The notes beneath the pieces were generated by a model. That model saw only the letters and a program-made list of their open reading frames with translations. It made no database searches and was not told where the DNA came from. Position numbers and translations under genes: made by a program. Positions 227-6,961 of a stretch of DNA of 6,961 bases are shown piece by piece; position 1 is the first letter of the stretch; every line of letters begins with the position of its first letter. The stretch is from a virus. Taxonomy: Duplodnaviria; Heunggongvirae; Uroviricota; Caudoviricetes. The DNA lies in the IMG/VR virus record IMGVR_UViG_2531839579_000008. One strand, given 5' to 3'.

Positions 227-555
227 GATAATACTCTATTGATCCTAGACTTACCATTTAAAAAACGAACTGACATGCTCCCGTTGATTAATAAGCTGTA
301 AGGTTAGCAATTCTTTTGGCGTTGAGAACAACTGCGAACTTCCGTTCCTTGCTCAAAGCAGACTGTTAGATTTGATAGCGTTTGGGCTATGTAAGTAGCC
401 AGTTGGAGAATGAGTGAGTGCAAATCAGGACTGGCGGGCGAATTGCCTGCATTTTCTTTATCTGTTGTTTCATCCACTGACCAGCCAGGTCAAATAGCGT
501 CTTATGCTCTGCACAACAGAAAATAGTTGCACCCATTAACCACGGAGTTAAACGG
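227..555. promoter_or_regulatory. Divergent intergenic region; expected to hold the promoter of the reverse-strand ORF and the late promoter of the FI-FII-E-T-U-D operon
   Basis: 329 bp with no ORF of any size worth calling, lying between two divergently oriented genes, and a composition shift from AT-rich (left) to GC-rich (right). Shine-Dalgarno GGAG at 545-548, 7 nt before the FI ATG. I scanned 420-555 for the Ogr-type TGT-N12-ACA dyad of P2 late promoters and found no exact match, so no promoter position is called. Confidence 0.3.
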
Positions 556-1741
556 ATGAGTGACTATCATCATGGCGTGCAGGTGCTGGAGATTAACGAC
601 GGCACCCGCGTCATTTCCACCGTATCCACTGCCATTGTCGGCATGGTCTGCACGGCCAGCGATGCGGATGCGGAAACCTTCCCCCTCAATAAACCGGTGC
701 TGATTACCAATGTGCAAAGCGCAATTGCAAAGGCCGGTAAAAAAGGCACGCTGGCGGCATCGTTGCAGGCCATCGCTGACCAGTCAAAACCGGTCACCGT
801 TGTCGTGCGCGTGGAAGACGGCACCGGTGATGACGAGGAAACGAAACTCGCGCAGACCGTTTCCAATATCATCGGCACCACCGACGAAAACGGTCAGTAC
901 ACCGGACTAAAAGCCCTGCTGGCGGTGGAGTCGGTAACCGGTGTTAAACCGCGTATTCTCGGTGTGCCGGGACTGGACACCAAAGAGGTGGCTGTTGCAC
1001 TGGCATCCGTCTGTCAGAAGCTGCGCGCTTTCGGATATATCAGCGCATGGGGCTGTAAGACCATTTCCGAGGTGAAAGCCTACCGCCAGAATTTCAGCCA
1101 GCGTGAGCTGATGGTCATCTGGCCGGATTTCCTCGCATGGGATACGGTCACCAGTACCACCGCCACCGCGTATGCCACCGCCCGTGCGCTGGGTCTGCGC
1201 GCTAAAATCGACCAGGAGCAGGGCTGGCATAAAACGCTGTCCAACGTCGGGGTAAACGGTGTTACCGGCATCAGCGCATCTGTATTCTGGGATTTGCAGG
1301 AGTCGGCACCGATGCTGACCTGCTTAACGAGTCAGGCGTCACTACGCTGATTCGCCGCGACGGTTTCCGTTCTGGGGTAACCGTACCTGCTCTGATGACC
1401 CGCTGTTCCTCTTTGAAAACTAACCCGCACCGCGCAGGTGTGGCCGACACGATGGCTGAGGCGCACATGTGGGCGGTGGACAAGCCCATCACCGCAACGC
1501 TGATTCGCGACATCGTTGACGGCATCAATGCCAAATTCGTGAGCTGAAAACAAACGGCTATATCGTGGATGCGACCTGCTGGTTCAGCGAAGAATCCAAC
1601 GATGCGGAAACCCTCAAGGCCGGAAAACTGTATATCGACTACGACTATACACCGGTGCCTCCTCTTGAAAACCTGACCCTGCGCCAGCGTATTACCGATA
1701 AATACCTGGCAAATCTGGTCACTTCGGTTAACAGCAATTAA
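556..1741 (+). pseudogene. FI: Tail sheath protein gpFI (P2 family), reading frame interrupted; intact only for 556..1350 (264 aa)
   Basis: N-terminus MSDYHHGVQVLEINDGTRVISTVSTAIVGMVC matches P2 gpFI as I recall it. The ORF stops at 1348-1350, but coding continues in shifted frames: frame 0 (1308-1370) TDADLLNESGVTTLIRRDGFR, frame 2 (1373-1420) WGNRTCSDDPLFLFEN, frame 1 (1423-1440) TRTAQV, frame 0 (1443-1538) ADTMAEAHMWAVDKPITATLIRDIVDGINAKF, frame 2 (1541-1738) ELKTNGYIVDATCWFSEESNDAETLKAGKLYIDYDYTPVPPLENLTLRQRITDKYLANLVTSVNSN, with stop TAA at 1739-1741 overlapping the FII Shine-Dalgarno. Each hop is a -1 step, so five single-base losses near 1305, 1371, 1421, 1440 and 1539. Corrected length would be about 396 aa, the typical sheath size. 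Confidence 0.85.
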
Positions 1742-1753
1742 GGAGCCTGACCG

Positions 1754-2272
1754 ATGGCAATGCCGCGCAAACTCAAGTTAATGAACGTCTTTCTGAACGG
1801 CTACAGCTATCAGGGCGTTGCAAAGTCCGTCACGCTGCCAAAACTGACCCGTAAGCTTGAAAACTATCGCGGTGCGGGGATGAACGGCAGCGCACCGGTA
1901 GACCTCGGCCTTGATGACGATGCGCTGTCAATGGAGTGGTCGCTCGGTGGCTTCCCGGATTCGGTTATCTGGGAGCTTTACGCCGCAACCGGCGTGGATG
2001 CCGTCCCGATTCGTTTTGCAGGCTCTTACCAGCGCGACGATACCGGCGAAACGGTGGCCGTTGAGGTGGTCATGCGTGGACGTCAGAAAGAAATCGACAC
2101 CGGCGAGGGTAAACAGGGAGAAGACACCGAGTCGAAAATCTCCGTGGTCTGCACCTATTTCCGGCTGACGATGGACGGTAAGGAGCTGGTCGAAATCGAC
2201 ACCATCAACATGATTGAGAAGGTGAACGGCGTCGACCGGCTGGAGCAACACCGCCGCAATATCGGCCTGTGA
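1754..2272 (+). CDS. FII: Tail tube protein gpFII (P2 family)
   Basis: Intact 172-aa ORF beginning MAMPRKLKLMNVFLNGYSYQGVAKSVTLPKL, matching P2 gpFII in sequence and length as recalled. Strong Shine-Dalgarno AAGGAG at 1740-1745. Immediately follows the sheath gene as in P2. Confidence 0.9.
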   Translation: MAMPRKLKLMNVFLNGYSYQGVAKSVTLPKLTRKLENYRGAGMNGSAPVDLGLDDDALSMEWSLGGFPDSVIWELYAATGVDAVPIRFAGSYQRDDTGETVAVEVVMRGRQKEIDTGEGKQGEDTESKISVVCTYFRLTMDGKELVEIDTINMIEKVNGVDRLEQHRRNIGL

Positions 2273-2279
2273 TTTTCAT

Positions 2280-2300
2280 CCGGTCAGCCTGGCTGACCGG
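2280..2300 (+). other. Perfect palindrome / stem-loop between FII and E
   Basis: CCGGTCAGCC-T-GGCTGACCGG: two 10-nt arms that are exact reverse complements around a single central T, starting 8 nt after the FII stop. It is followed by TTAACCCC, not a U-run, so it is not a canonical intrinsic terminator. Confidence 0.35.
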
Positions 2301-2328
2301 TTAACCCCGATTCATAAGTGAGAAAACC

Positions 2329-2604
2329 ATGAACAAAGAAAATGTGATTACCCTGGACAATCCGGTCAAACGTGGTGAGCAGGTTATCGAACAGGTCACG
2401 CTGATGAAACCCAGTGCCGGGACGCTGCGCGGTGTCAGTCTGGCAGCGGTCGCAAACTCCGAAGTCGATGCACTGATTAAGGTGTTGCCGCGCATGACGG
2501 CACCGATGCTGACCGAGCAGGAAGTCGCCGCACTGGAACTGCCTGACCTTGTGGCGCTGGCCGGTAAGGTGGTCGGTTTTTTGTCGCCGAACTCGGTGCA
2601 GTGA
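2329..2604 (+). CDS. E: Tail assembly chaperone gpE (P2 family)
   Basis: Intact 91-aa ORF MNKENVITLDNPVKRGEQVIEQVTLMKPSAGTLRGVSLAAVANSEVDALIKVLPRMTAPMLTEQEVAALELPDLVALAGKVVGFLSPNSVQ, matching P2 gpE in sequence and length as recalled. Confidence 0.9.
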   Translation: MNKENVITLDNPVKRGEQVIEQVTLMKPSAGTLRGVSLAAVANSEVDALIKVLPRMTAPMLTEQEVAALELPDLVALAGKVVGFLSPNSVQ

Positions 2605-2756
2605 CGTTCCCGAAAAATCTGTCGGTCGATGACCTGATGGCGGATGTGGCAGTGATATTTCACTGGCCGCCATCAGAACTGTATCCCATGAGCCTGACCG
2701 AACTCATCACATGGCGCGAAAAGGCGCTCCGGCGAAGCGGAAACACGAATGAGTAA
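2329..2756 (+). CDS. E': gpE+E' fusion made by programmed -1 ribosomal frameshift near the 3' end of E
   Basis: Slippery run TTTTTTG at 2577-2583 inside the last codons of E. The -1 frame from 2583 is open to TAA at 2754-2756 and reads VAELGAVTFPKNLSVDDLMADVAVIFHWPPSELYPMSLTELITWREKALRRSGNTNE. Total about 142 aa, the size I recall for P2 E+E'. The E' stop overlaps the T start at 2749. Confidence 0.8.
2577..2583 (+). other. Programmed -1 frameshift slippery site (T6G) for E/E'
   Basis: TTTTTTG heptamer, 20 nt before the E stop codon, with an open -1 frame downstream. This is the arrangement of the conserved tail-chaperone frameshift in P2 (gpE/E') and lambda (gpG/GT). Confidence 0.75.
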
Positions 2757-5174
2757 CAATGTAAAATTACAGGTATTGCTCAGGGCTGTTGACCAGGCAT
2801 CCCGCCCGTTTAAATCCATCCGCACAGCGAGCAAATCGCTGTCGGGGGATATCCGGGAAACACAAAAATCACTGCGCGAGCTGAACGGTCACGCATCCCG
2901 TATTGAGGGATTCGCAAGACCAGTGCACAGCTCGCCGTGACTGGTCATGCACTTGAAAAGGCACGGCAGGAGGCCGAAGCCCTTGCCACACAGTTTAAAA
3001 ACACCGAACGTCCGACACGTGCTCAGGCGAAAGTGCTGGAATCGCAAGCGGCGGCGGAGGACTTACAGGCGAAATATAACCGCCTGACGGATTCCGTTAA
3101 ACGCCAGCAGCGGGAACTGGCCGTTGTGGGAATTAATACCCGCAATCTTGCACATGATGAGCAGGGACTGAAAAACCGTATCAGTGAAACCACCGCCCAG
3201 CTTAACCGGCAGCGTGACGCGCTGGCGCGTGTCAGTGCGCAACAGGCAAAACTTAACGCAGTCAAACAGCGTTATCAGGCCGGAAAGGAACTGGCCGGAA
3301 ATATGGCCTCAGTGGGCGCTGCCGGTGTGGGGATTGCTGCTGCGGGAACGATGGCCGGAGTTAAGTTGCTGATGCCCGGTTATGAGTTTGCGCAGAAAAA
3401 CTCAGAATTGCAGGCTGTGCTCGGTGTGGCAAAAGACTCCGCCGAAATGGCCGCGCTCCGCAAGCAGGCGCGCCAGCTCGGCGACAATACCGCAGCCTCG
3501 GCAGATGATGCAGCCGGTGCGCAGATTATTATTGCGAAAGCCGGTGGGGATGTTGATGCCATTCAGGCGGCAACGCCGGTCACGTTGAATATGGCGCTGG
3601 CGAACCGCCGCACGATGGAAGAAAACGCCGCCCTGCTGATGGGGATGAAATCCGCCTTTCAGCTTTCAAACGATAAGGTCGCTCATATCGGGGATGTTCT
3701 CTCCATGACGATGAACAAAACCGCCGCCGATTTTGACGGTATGAGCGATGCGCTGACCTATGCCGCACCTGTGGCAAAAAATGCCGGTGTCAGCATTGAA
3801 GAAACCGCCGCAATGGTCGGGGCGCTGCATGATGCAAAAATCACAGGCTCAATGGCGGGGACGGGAAGCCGTGCCGTGTTAAGCCGCCTGCAGGCACCGA
3901 CGGGAAAAGCATGGGATGCACTCAAAGAGCTTGGAGTGAAAACCTCAGACAGCAAGGGAAACACCCGGCCAATATTTACCATTCTGAAAGAAATGCAGGC
4001 CAGTTTTGAGAAAAACCGGCTCGGTACTGCCCAGCAGGCTGAATACATGAAAACCATTTTCGGGGAGGAGGCCAGCTCAGCCGCCGCTGTGCTGATGACT
4101 GCCGCCTCAACCGGAAAGCTGGACAAACTGACCGCTGCGTTTAAAGCCTCAGACGGGAAGACCGCAGAGCTGGTAAATATCATGCAGGACAACCTCGGCG
4201 GTGACTTTAAGGAGTTTCAGTCCGCTTATGAGGCGGTGGGGACGACCTGTTTGACCAGCAGGAAGGCGCACTGCGTAATCTCACGCAGACGGCCACAAAG
4301 TATGTGTTAAAACTCGACGGCTGGATCCAGAAAAACAAATCACTGGCGTCAACCATCGGCTCATTGTCGGTGGGCCTGGCCTATTGGTCATCGGTGCCAT
4401 TGGCTGTAGCCTGGCCGGTTATCACGGCATCAATGCCATCATCGCGGCAGCAGGCGCAATGGGGGCATCTTCACGACGGTTGGCAGTGCTGTTATGACGC
4501 CATCGGGGCGATTAGCTGGCCGGTTGTGGCCGTGGTGGCCGCCATTGTCGCCGGGGCGTTGCTTATCCGTAAATACTGGGAGCCTGTCAGCGCATTCTTT
4601 GGCGGTGTGGTGGAAGGGCTGAAAGCGGCATTTGCGCCGGTGGGGGAACTGTTCACGCCACTTAAACCGGTGTTTGACTGGCTGGGCGAAAAGTTACAGG
4701 CCGCGTGGCAGTGGTTTAAAAACCTGATTGCCCCGGTCAAAGCCACCCAGGACACCCTGAACCGTTGCCGTGACACGGGCGTCATGTTCGGGCAGGCACT
4801 GGCTGACGCGCTGATGCTGCCGCTTAATGCGTTCAACAAACTGCGCGGCGGTATTGACTGGGTACTGGAAAAACTCGGCGTCATCAACAAAGAGTCAGGC
4901 ACGCTTGACCAGACCGCCGCCAGAACTCATGCCGCCACGTATGGCACCGGTGGTTATATTCCGGCGACCAGCTCTTATGCAGGTTATCAGGCTTATCAGC
5001 CGGTCACGGCACCGGCTGGCCGCTCTTATGTAGACCAGAGTAAAAACGAATATCACATCACCTGACGGGGGTACTCGCCGGGGAACAGCTCGACCGCCAG
5101 TTACAGGATGCCTCGAAAAATACGAGCGGGATAAACGTGCGCGCGCCCGTGCCAGCATGATGCATGACGGTTAA
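2749..5174 (+). pseudogene. T: Tail tape measure protein gpT (P2 family), reading frame interrupted at several points
   Basis: N-terminus MSNNVKLQVLLRAVDQASRPFKSIRTASKSL matches P2 gpT as recalled. The track splits the gene into 2749..2940 (frame 1), 2937..4310 (frame 0) and 4304..5065 (frame 2). Frame hops: near 2913 (IEGF then RKTSAQLAVTGHAL in the next frame); near 4244 (EAVGT then LFDQQEGALRNLTQTATKYVLKLDGW); three hops in 4362-4499 within a hydrophobic segment; near 5062 and 5112, after which frame 0 reads LEKYERDKRARARASMMHDG to TAA at 5172-5174, which overlaps the U Shine-Dalgarno AAGGAGG (5173-5179). Corrected length about 810 aa, against about 815 aa recalled for P2 gpT. Confidence 0.85.
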
Positions 5175-5188
5175 GGAGGTGACGAAAA

Positions 5189-5662
5189 ATGATGCTCGCG
5201 TTAGGTATGTTTGTTTTTATGCGCCAGACGCTGCCACACCAGACCATGCAGCGTGAATCAGATTATCGCTGGCCGTCAAATTCCCGTATCGGTAAACGGG
5301 AGCTTTCAGTTTCTCGGTGTGGGAGGAAAACATCACGCTTGCCGGTGTGCTTTATCCCGACTGACCGGCGGAAGCTGACGATGACCACGCTCAGGCTGAT
5401 GGCAGAGGAAGGCCGGGCGTGGCCGTTGCTGGATGGCACCGGCATGATTTACGGCATGTATGTCATCAGCAGGGTGAGTGAAGCAGGGAGTATTTTCTTT
5501 GCAGACGGCACACCCCGAAAAATTGATTTTACGCTGTCGCTTACCCGCGTTGATGAATCACTGGCCGCGCTTTATGGCGATATCGGTAAACAGGCGGAAT
5601 CGCTCATCGGTAAGGCTGGCAGTATGGCGACTAAATTCACGGGTATGACGGGGGCGGGATAA
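5189..5662 (+). CDS. U: Tail protein gpU (P2 family); full-length frame but with an internal 25-aa stretch that appears to be read out of frame
   Basis: 157-aa ORF with Shine-Dalgarno AAGGAGG at 5173-5179. The N-terminus MMLALGMFVFMRQTLPHQTMQRESDYRWPSNSRIGKR and the C-terminus KLTMTTLRLMAEEGRAWPLLDGTGMIYGMYVISRVSEAGSIFFADGTPRKIDFTLSLTRVDESLAALYGDIGKQAESLIGKAGSMATKFTGMTGAG match P2 gpU as recalled. The middle segment ELSVSRCGRKTSRLPVCFIPTDRR (5300-5371) is Arg/Cys-rich, while the other two frames over the same bases read FQFLGVG, EENITLAGVLYP and LTGG. Confidence 0.85.
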   Translation: MMLALGMFVFMRQTLPHQTMQRESDYRWPSNSRIGKRELSVSRCGRKTSRLPVCFIPTDRRKLTMTTLRLMAEEGRAWPLLDGTGMIYGMYVISRVSEAGSIFFADGTPRKIDFTLSLTRVDESLAALYGDIGKQAESLIGKAGSMATKFTGMTGAG

Positions 5663-6825
5663 TGCTGGATGCGCTGACATTTGATGCAGGCAGTACGCTG
5701 ACGCCGGATTACATGCTGATGCTCGACAGCAGGGATATTACCGGCAATATCAGCGACCGTCTGATGAGCATGACCCTGACGGATAACCGGGGCTTTGAGG
5801 CTGACCAGCTTGATATTGAACTGAACGATGCCGACGGGCAGGTCGGGCTACCGATTCGTGGCGCTGTCCTGACGGTGTATATCGGCTGGAAAGGTTTTGC
5901 CCTGGTATGCAAAGGGAAATTTACCGTTGATGAGGTTGAACACCGGGGCGCGCCGGATGTGGTTACCATCCGCGCCCGGAGTGCAGATTTCCGCGGGACG
6001 CTTAATTCCCGCCGGGAAGGCTCCTGGCATGACACCACGCTCGGTGCGATTGTTGAGGCGATAGCCTCCCGTAACAAGCTGGAGGCCAGTGTCGCTCCGT
6101 CACTGGCCGGAATTAAAATCCCGCACATCGACCAGTCGCAGGAGTCTGATGCGAAATTCCTGATCCGTCTTGCTGAACGCAACGGCGGTGAGGTGTCGGT
6201 AAAAATGGGAAAACTGTTGTTTCTTAAGGCGGGGCAGGGGGTGACGGCCAGCGGTAAAAAAATCCCGCAGATTACCATCACCCGCAGCGACGGCGACCGT
6301 CATCATTTTGCGATTGCTGACCGTGGAGCCTACACCGGTGTAACGGCAAAATGGCTACACACCAAAGACCCGAAGCCTCAAAAGCAGAAGGTAAAACTGA
6401 AACGTAAAAAGAAAGAGAAACACCTGCGCGCACTGGAGCACCCGAAAGCGAAACCGGTCAGGCAGAAGAAAGCGCCTAAAGTACCGGAAGCGCGTGAAGG
6501 TGAATACATGGCCGGTGAGGCTGACAACGTTTTTGCCCTGACCACGGTATATGCCACGAAAGCACAGGCCATGCGTGCCGCTCAGGCGAAGTGGGATAAG
6601 CTGCAACGGGGTGTAGCGGAGTTCTCCATCAGCCTGGCTACTGGTCGGGCAGATATTTACACGGAAACACCGGTTAAAGTGTCAGGCTTTAAGCGCGTCA
6701 TAGACGAGCAGGACTGGACAATCACTAAGGTGACACATTTTCTGAATAACAGCGGCTTCACGACGTCCCTGGAGCTTGAGGTCAGGCTTTCTGATGTGAA
6801 GTACGAAACAGAAGATGATGAGTGA
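5662..6825 (+). CDS. D: Tail protein gpD (phage late control gene D family, P2 family)
   Basis: Intact 387-aa ORF MLDALTFDAGSTLTPDYMLMLDSRDITGNISDRLMSMTLTDNRGFEADQLDIELNDADGQ, matching P2 gpD in sequence and length as recalled. Its start overlaps the U stop (TAATG at 5660-5664). Contains the lysine-rich basic stretch typical of gpD. Confidence 0.9.
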   Translation: MLDALTFDAGSTLTPDYMLMLDSRDITGNISDRLMSMTLTDNRGFEADQLDIELNDADGQVGLPIRGAVLTVYIGWKGFALVCKGKFTVDEVEHRGAPDVVTIRARSADFRGTLNSRREGSWHDTTLGAIVEAIASRNKLEASVAPSLAGIKIPHIDQSQESDAKFLIRLAERNGGEVSVKMGKLLFLKAGQGVTASGKKIPQITITRSDGDRHHFAIADRGAYTGVTAKWLHTKDPKPQKQKVKLKRKKKEKHLRALEHPKAKPVRQKKAPKVPEAREGEYMAGEADNVFALTTVYATKAQAMRAAQAKWDKLQRGVAEFSISLATGRADIYTETPVKVSGFKRVIDEQDWTITKVTHFLNNSGFTTSLELEVRLSDVKYETEDDE

Positions 6826-6906
6826 TGTTTTGTTTTTATCTGTTTGTTTTATAAGGATAAATTAACTAAAATGGCACCATCAACAAAACCGGAAGAGGTG
6901 CTCGCG
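6826..6906 (+). promoter_or_regulatory. D-ogr intergenic region, presumed to carry the ogr promoter and ribosome-binding site
   Basis: 81-bp AT-rich spacer containing a TATAAG -10-like hexamer at 6850-6855 and a Shine-Dalgarno AAGAGG (about 6893-6898) 8 nt before the ATG at 6907. I could not find a well-spaced -35 element, and there is no GC-rich hairpin after the D stop. Confidence 0.3.
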
Positions 6907-6961
6907 ATGTTTCATTGTCCTTTATGCCAGCATGCCGCACATGCGCGTACAAGTCGCTATA
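6907..6961 (+). CDS. ogr: Ogr zinc-finger late-gene transcriptional activator, 5' end only (runs off the right edge)
   Basis: Translation from ATG 6907 reads MFHCPLCQHAAHARTSRY, which is the N-terminus of P2 Ogr as I recall it and includes the CxxC zinc-binding motif. It sits directly after D as in P2. An in-frame ATG at 6871 would add 12 residues (MAPSTKPEEVLA) but has a poorer ribosome-binding site. Confidence 0.85.
   Translation, partial: MFHCPLCQHAAHARTSRY

Follow-up and report, generated by a model that had tools for sequence, protein, structure and literature searches.

The window, that is, the whole stretch of DNA analysed here, is the entire contig AQBU01000162.1 (6,961 bp; L004 in our numbering) of the Escherichia coli draft assembly GCA_000358575.2, for which NCBI gives the source name E. 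coli p0305293.7. A P2-like tail gene module fills it, and the order T - U - D is kept, as judged from the open reading frames (ORFs) of the window, from the annotated relatives (L001, the closest complete prophage, of E. coli 120899; L002, which is P2; and L005) and from the Pfam families of the neighbouring genes. The features are the following, "drop-out" standing for a single base that is missing from the window:

556-1741, plus strand: sheath gene FI, split into three ORFs by drop-outs
1754-2272: tube gene FII
2329-2756: E/E'
2749-5174, plus strand: tape-measure gene T, left as several ORF fragments by drop-outs
5189-5662, plus strand: gene U (P2 gpU, the tube-initiator protein), 474 nt, 157 aa, placed by the ORF list, PF06995 and the alignment to U of L001 (6591-7070)
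5662-6825: gene D
right end of the window, after D: ogr, start only

The overlapping ORFs at 2329-2604 and 2601-2756 correspond to a tail assembly protein and a GpE-family protein in annotated relatives. P2 expresses both members of this E/E' pair by means of a programmed frameshift. The pair is intact in the window, and the matching region of a second draft contig, AQCC01000104.1 (L003), carries five drop-outs. At the left end, positions 1-350 have no match in L001 and are found at 100% identity in only six complete E. coli genomes. A hypothetical gene of 984 nt on the minus strand (WP_223675583.1) has its 5' part in the first ~184 bases; it sits between the tail-fibre assembly gene and FI, a variable cargo position of P2-like phages.

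As for the source of the contig, P0305293.1 is an ETEC isolate from Bangladesh, dated 2011 and sequenced at GSCID (PMC4309559). A multi-colony ETEC study from the same centre combined Illumina HiSeq 2000 sequencing at >200x coverage with Celera Assembler (PMC4462620). P0305293 is not named in the main text of that study, and Celera Assembler is thus only the presumed assembler of the P0305293 series. A literature search on the WGS and assembly accessions gave no match.

Gene U of the window is a P2-type U (PF06995, Phage_P2_GpU) in its usual position between T and D. According to a 2026 preprint on the P2 structure, six copies of gpU on the gpD hub make up the tube initiator. A previous reading of this DNA, based on its letters and a list of ORFs (hereafter the sequence-only reading), had pointed out that about six bases were lost from U with a net in-frame result. 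Nucleotide alignment to L001 and P2 bears this out: there are six single-base deletions in the gene and, with respect to L001, zero substitutions anywhere in it, so that the difference consists of deletions and not of substitutions. They delimit the following features, in which the positions of the breaks are given with each gap set on the polymorphic column:

5300..5371, plus strand: scrambled stretch, 24 out-of-frame codons ELSVSRCGRKTSRLPVCFIPTDRR (residues 38-61) in place of the native DAFQFLGVGEENITLAGVLYPELTGG (26 residues)
5301-5302 and 5303-5304 breaks, plus strand: drop-out sites 1 and 2, third bases of codon 38 (GAT/GAC) and codon 39 (GCC/GCT) missing
5320-5321 and 5322-5323 breaks, plus strand: drop-out sites 3 and 4, third bases of codon 45 (GTT/GTG) and codon 46 (GGC/GGT) missing
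5360-5361 break, plus strand: drop-out site 5, third base of codon 59 (GAG/GAA) missing
5371-5372 break, plus strand: drop-out site 6, third base of codon 63 (GGA/GGC) missing

The translation of the other frames offered by the sequence-only reading was exact, with FQFLGVG at 5304-5324, EENITLAGVLYP at 5323-5358 and LTGG at 5361-5372, and the P2 gpU segment that it gave, DAFQFLGVGEENITLAGVLYPELTGGKLTMTT, does occur in P2 and L001. It had placed the scramble at residues ~38-62, with a size of 25 residues, and this has to be amended, since 24 residues (38-61) replace 26. Nor are the 157 residues a full-length gpU, as it had supposed: an intact U measures 480 nt and encodes 159 aa, two residues more, and this length is that of all the U genes in our panel (83/83). 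When the six bases are put back, the predicted protein has 159 aa and is identical to that of L001. The possibility of a programmed recoding of U was discarded, because each of the 83 panel genes is a single 480-nt stretch in which no frameshift is needed.

Outside its 24 scrambled residues, the product of the window ORF equals that of the L001 prophage and is one residue off P2 gpU; the contrast with P2 lies in residues 38-61, which are out of frame, and in the length, two residues short. The segment is absent from all other members of the family, a point on which the sequence-only reading had made its proposal depend when it remarked on the Arg/Cys-rich composition of these residues. The only solved sequence homologue is PA0626 of pyocin R2 ('Ripcord', PDB 6U5B chain h), which aligns to gpU residues 8-126 with E = 6e-13 and which, unlike gpU, is a protein of 290 aa with an extra N-terminal part. 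This alignment includes the conserved motif G-x-G-E-E-x-I-x-L-x-G, and it is exactly this motif that the scrambled stretch of the window replaces. A scrambled gpU, if made at all, would lack the best-conserved motif of its family.

As the sequence-only reading had anticipated, gene finding takes this gene for an intact one: the NCBI gene calling accepted a U gene of 157 aa, and the window ORF reaches 99.9 bits against PF06995 (gathering threshold, 27.5), compared with 147.8 bits for the intact L001 protein. The 157-aa protein forms a singleton cluster among ~15 billion proteins and is encoded on two contigs only, AQBU01000162.1 and AQCC01000104.1. At the nucleotide level, a 701-nt query around U spans 708 nt in all of the phage and complete E. 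coli records among the matches listed, and among the matches listed, which were drawn from complete E. coli genomes (5,426) and phage records (50,697), none is a gap-free match to the U of the window.

The missing bases are not confined to U. Compared with L001 over positions 351-6961, the window lacks 33 bases, has no insertion and differs by 99 substitutions. Besides those in U, the drop-outs are distributed as follows:

1303..1538, plus strand: FI cluster, after 1303, 1369, 1422, 1440 and 1537
2912..3051, plus strand: T cluster, after 2912, 3043, 3045 and 3050
4243..4499, plus strand: T clusters, after 4243, 4359, 4373, 4375, 4380, 4382, 4387 (twice), 4403, 4405, 4425, 4467 and 4498
5060..5112, plus strand: cluster at the 3' end of T, after 5060, 5069, 5075, 5084 and 5111

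The deletions are concentrated in FI, T and U, and for this reason the first two genes appear as several ORFs. The 27 drop-outs outside U make FI and T look like pseudogenes and share the same artefact signature.

Taken at face value, such a contig would be a piece of a decaying P2-like prophage with genuine mutations, where compensating frameshifts in gpU would have resulted in a non-functional tube initiator. The six deletions are indeed present in the deposited sequence, the U of a second assembly is identical, and the sheath and tape-measure genes of the contig are also broken, as in a defective prophage. The type of change does not suit this explanation, given the absence of insertions and of any substitution in U with respect to L001, and neither does the location of the missing bases. 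In a set of 35 natural P2-like haplotypes free of gaps, 15% of whose columns are polymorphic, polymorphism is seen at 32 of the 33 deleted columns when gaps are slid only among placements of equal score. The permutation null for this overlap is 6.9 +/- 2.1 and never exceeds 13 in 150 permutations; at the one remaining column P2 itself differs. Moreover, 26 of the 33 deleted bases fall on third-codon positions (binomial P ~1e-7). Decay would favour neither polymorphic sites nor third-codon positions. An allele of this kind would also be expected to turn up elsewhere, but it is absent among the matches listed from the complete E. coli genomes and the phage records, and its protein stands alone in its cluster. 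We therefore regard genuine mutation as very unlikely.

Within the 2,806 nt where L003 is intact, L001 and L003 are separated by 55 SNP columns, and all the deletions of the window in this region (18/18) are on them, including every site of the 4243..4499 clusters, each of which is an L001/L003 difference. At the other SNP columns the window has the L001 allele (A) in 17 cases and the L003 allele (B) in 18, with 2 unplaced, and these alleles come in runs. Explicit column tests were used for these comparisons because a five-way MAFFT alignment fuses adjacent gaps and gives too few coincidences.

In U itself, the two commonest haplotypes of the 83-gene panel (L001 type and L009 type) have six differences in a 105-nt segment around the scramble, at positions 114 (T/C), 117 (C/T), 135 (T/G), 138 (C/T), 177 (G/A) and 189 (A/C) of the gene, all of them at synonymous third-codon positions. 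Removal of these six columns yields exactly the sequence of the window. In the 83 panel genes site 1 is T in 67 and C in 16, and site 2 is C in 71 and T in 12, and the sister drafts described below have either T,C or C,T there. The two types also differ at positions 228, 231 and 290 of U, where the window has the L001 allele, so not every mixed column was dropped.

Five draft contigs show this behaviour. The identical 157-aa U is also carried by L003, in which T is intact and the sheath, tube, E and D genes have deletions, and three further draft contigs, L087, L088 and L093 (IMG/VR 2537561687_000006, 2531839586_000013 and 2537561685_000016), behave in the same way. Their identical flanks suggest that these three come from the same strain series. 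Deletions number 33 in the window, 26 in L003, 14 in L088, 9 in L093 and 2 in L087, and insertions are 0 in all five. The subsets of drop-outs overlap and yet differ among the five drafts; at the six sites of U, three drafts are intact, each of them with one or the other natural allele. The column at L001 2746 (after window position 1369) is absent from 5/5 drafts.

All substitution-variable columns among the five drafts (151/151) are strictly biallelic. One allele of each pair is that of L001, and no two drafts have the same arrangement of A, b and gap runs. Their unique flanks are virtually the same: L087 and L093 show 0 mismatches in 2,749 + 458 nt (3,207 nt), L003 and L088 show 1 mismatch in 2,148 nt, and the left 350 nt of the window are identical to those of L087 and L093. 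In the shared core, on the other hand, ~1% of sites differ in the same pairs, with 66-87 substitutions plus differing gaps. Genuine mutation would here need dozens of recurrent identical deletions and reversions to account for the differing subsets and mosaics. The sequence-only reading had seen four indel events in U (-2, -2, -1, -1), and this grouping holds; what is not supported is their attribution to mutation of the phage gene, since the subset of deletions present varies between contigs whose flanks are identical.

A second alternative would be random or technology-specific sequencing error (homopolymers, low coverage or low quality) in the absence of any second haplotype, which could produce deletion-only changes, clustered and in a short draft contig, as is the case here. 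However, the deleted bases lie in runs of length 1 in 21 of the 33 cases, of length 2 in 9 and of length 3 in 3, which is near background, with no homopolymer enrichment. Errors of this sort would neither coincide with natural SNP columns nor turn up again at identical coordinates in five assemblies, and the likely platform, Illumina at >200x (PMC4462620), does not have such indel rates. This explanation seems to us scarcely credible.

The combination of identical flanks, a randomly phased biallelic core and bases missing only at biallelic sites indicates collapsed copies instead of mutation. In the scenario that we favour, reads from two P2-like prophage haplotypes, different at ~2% of their sites, would have been merged into a single contig, and at each differing column the consensus would have taken one allele, the other allele or nothing, a skipped column being seen as a one-base deletion. 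All of six synonymous differences lying close together in U would have been skipped; since their number is divisible by three, reading returns to the original frame and the ORF keeps a nearly normal length. As for the software step, the two alleles may have ended up side by side in half-gapped columns, each of which was afterwards called as a gap, or ambiguity codes may have been stripped at a later stage. Whatever the origin of the two haplotypes, we are close to certain that the scramble arose in the assembly, and the more specific proposal, in which consensus building over two co-resident prophages in a draft assembly produced the scrambled gpU, is in our opinion very probable.

The residence of the two haplotypes deserves a separate discussion. 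The same consensus artefact could have been fed by a mixed template, either two strains or a cross-contaminated library, because a biallelic mosaic requires two haplotypes among the reads wherever they reside, and divergent isolates were found within 2 of 12 patients in the multi-colony ETEC study (PMC4462620). Against this, no fewer than five contigs, assembled separately and with identical flanks, show the artefact. The drafts also combine a single type of right flank with two types of left flank, an arrangement that two resident prophages explain more easily. Genomes with two or three P2-like copies are, in addition, common: ~15% of the complete E. coli genomes with a match hold them (1,844 places in 1,594 genomes). 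This frequency, together with the two left flanks on one right flank, makes two prophages resident in the ETEC strain the likeliest source, and we consider a mixed template improbable, albeit less so than mutation or sequencing error.

With a B-type query, many ungapped B-like prophages (99.5%) are found in complete genomes. Regarding a complete genome with both A and B prophages, the 120899 lineage is absent among the matches listed (60), and co-residence is for this reason something that we infer. The best pair of haplotypes in the panel, L001 + L093, lowers the number of unexplained events from 132 to 42. No pair explains them all, which implies that the true haplotypes of the strain are not in the panel. 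From ~160 nt past window position 6961 onwards, the right flank of L087, L088 and L093 is wholly unlike that of L001 and L005, which adjoins yegQ, so at least one of the two prophages would have neighbours other than those of the closest complete relatives. The right end of the contig was considered as the boundary of the repeat and rejected as such, given that the relatives stay alike for ~160 nt beyond it.

A physical version of the two-prophage scenario can also be conceived, in which single bases would be removed at heteroduplex mismatches during recombination between the co-resident prophages and clonal colonies would differ in the mismatches excised. We give this mechanism almost no credence.

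Collapsed copies, for their part, are a familiar problem of draft assemblies, where repeats merged into one show mixed read evidence wherever the copies differ (Pilon paper, PMC4237348). The contig studied here resembles such cases in being a biallelic mosaic with its errors on the SNPs between copies. It departs from them in that mixed columns usually end as one arbitrary allele or as an ambiguity code, whereas many of them have here been dropped outright; our search of the literature found no published description of a consensus that places gaps at SNPs. Positions 351-6961 of the window, the part common to both P2-like haplotypes, are a chimera even where no base is missing, passing in runs from L001-type to alternative alleles and back, and represent neither of the real prophage haplotypes.

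The sequence-only reading had concluded that gpU was probably non-functional in the organism. This conclusion is not supported, since the six sites are synonymous haplotype differences within a contig-wide set made up of deletions alone. The bacterium probably does not contain the scrambled protein, and the strain most likely carries intact gpU genes. The scramble is almost certainly no biological feature, and nothing new about phage tails follows from it.

The interest of the case, modest as it is, concerns the quality of data: ORF calling and the Pfam thresholds both let through a protein that is probably not real. In no fewer than five draft contigs the same signature interrupts genes of the tail module, those for sheath, tube, tail assembly (E) and tape measure as well as D, and pseudogene counts, calls of prophage "intactness" and pangenome analyses made on assemblies of this kind would be inflated. 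An in-silico screen for this class of error could look for deletion-only differences on sites that are naturally polymorphic and mostly at third-codon positions. The spurious 157-aa protein is at present found in GenBank, RefSeq and UniRef as ENG46116.1, ENH53860.1, WP_001661088.1 and UniRef100_UPI0002CA9777.
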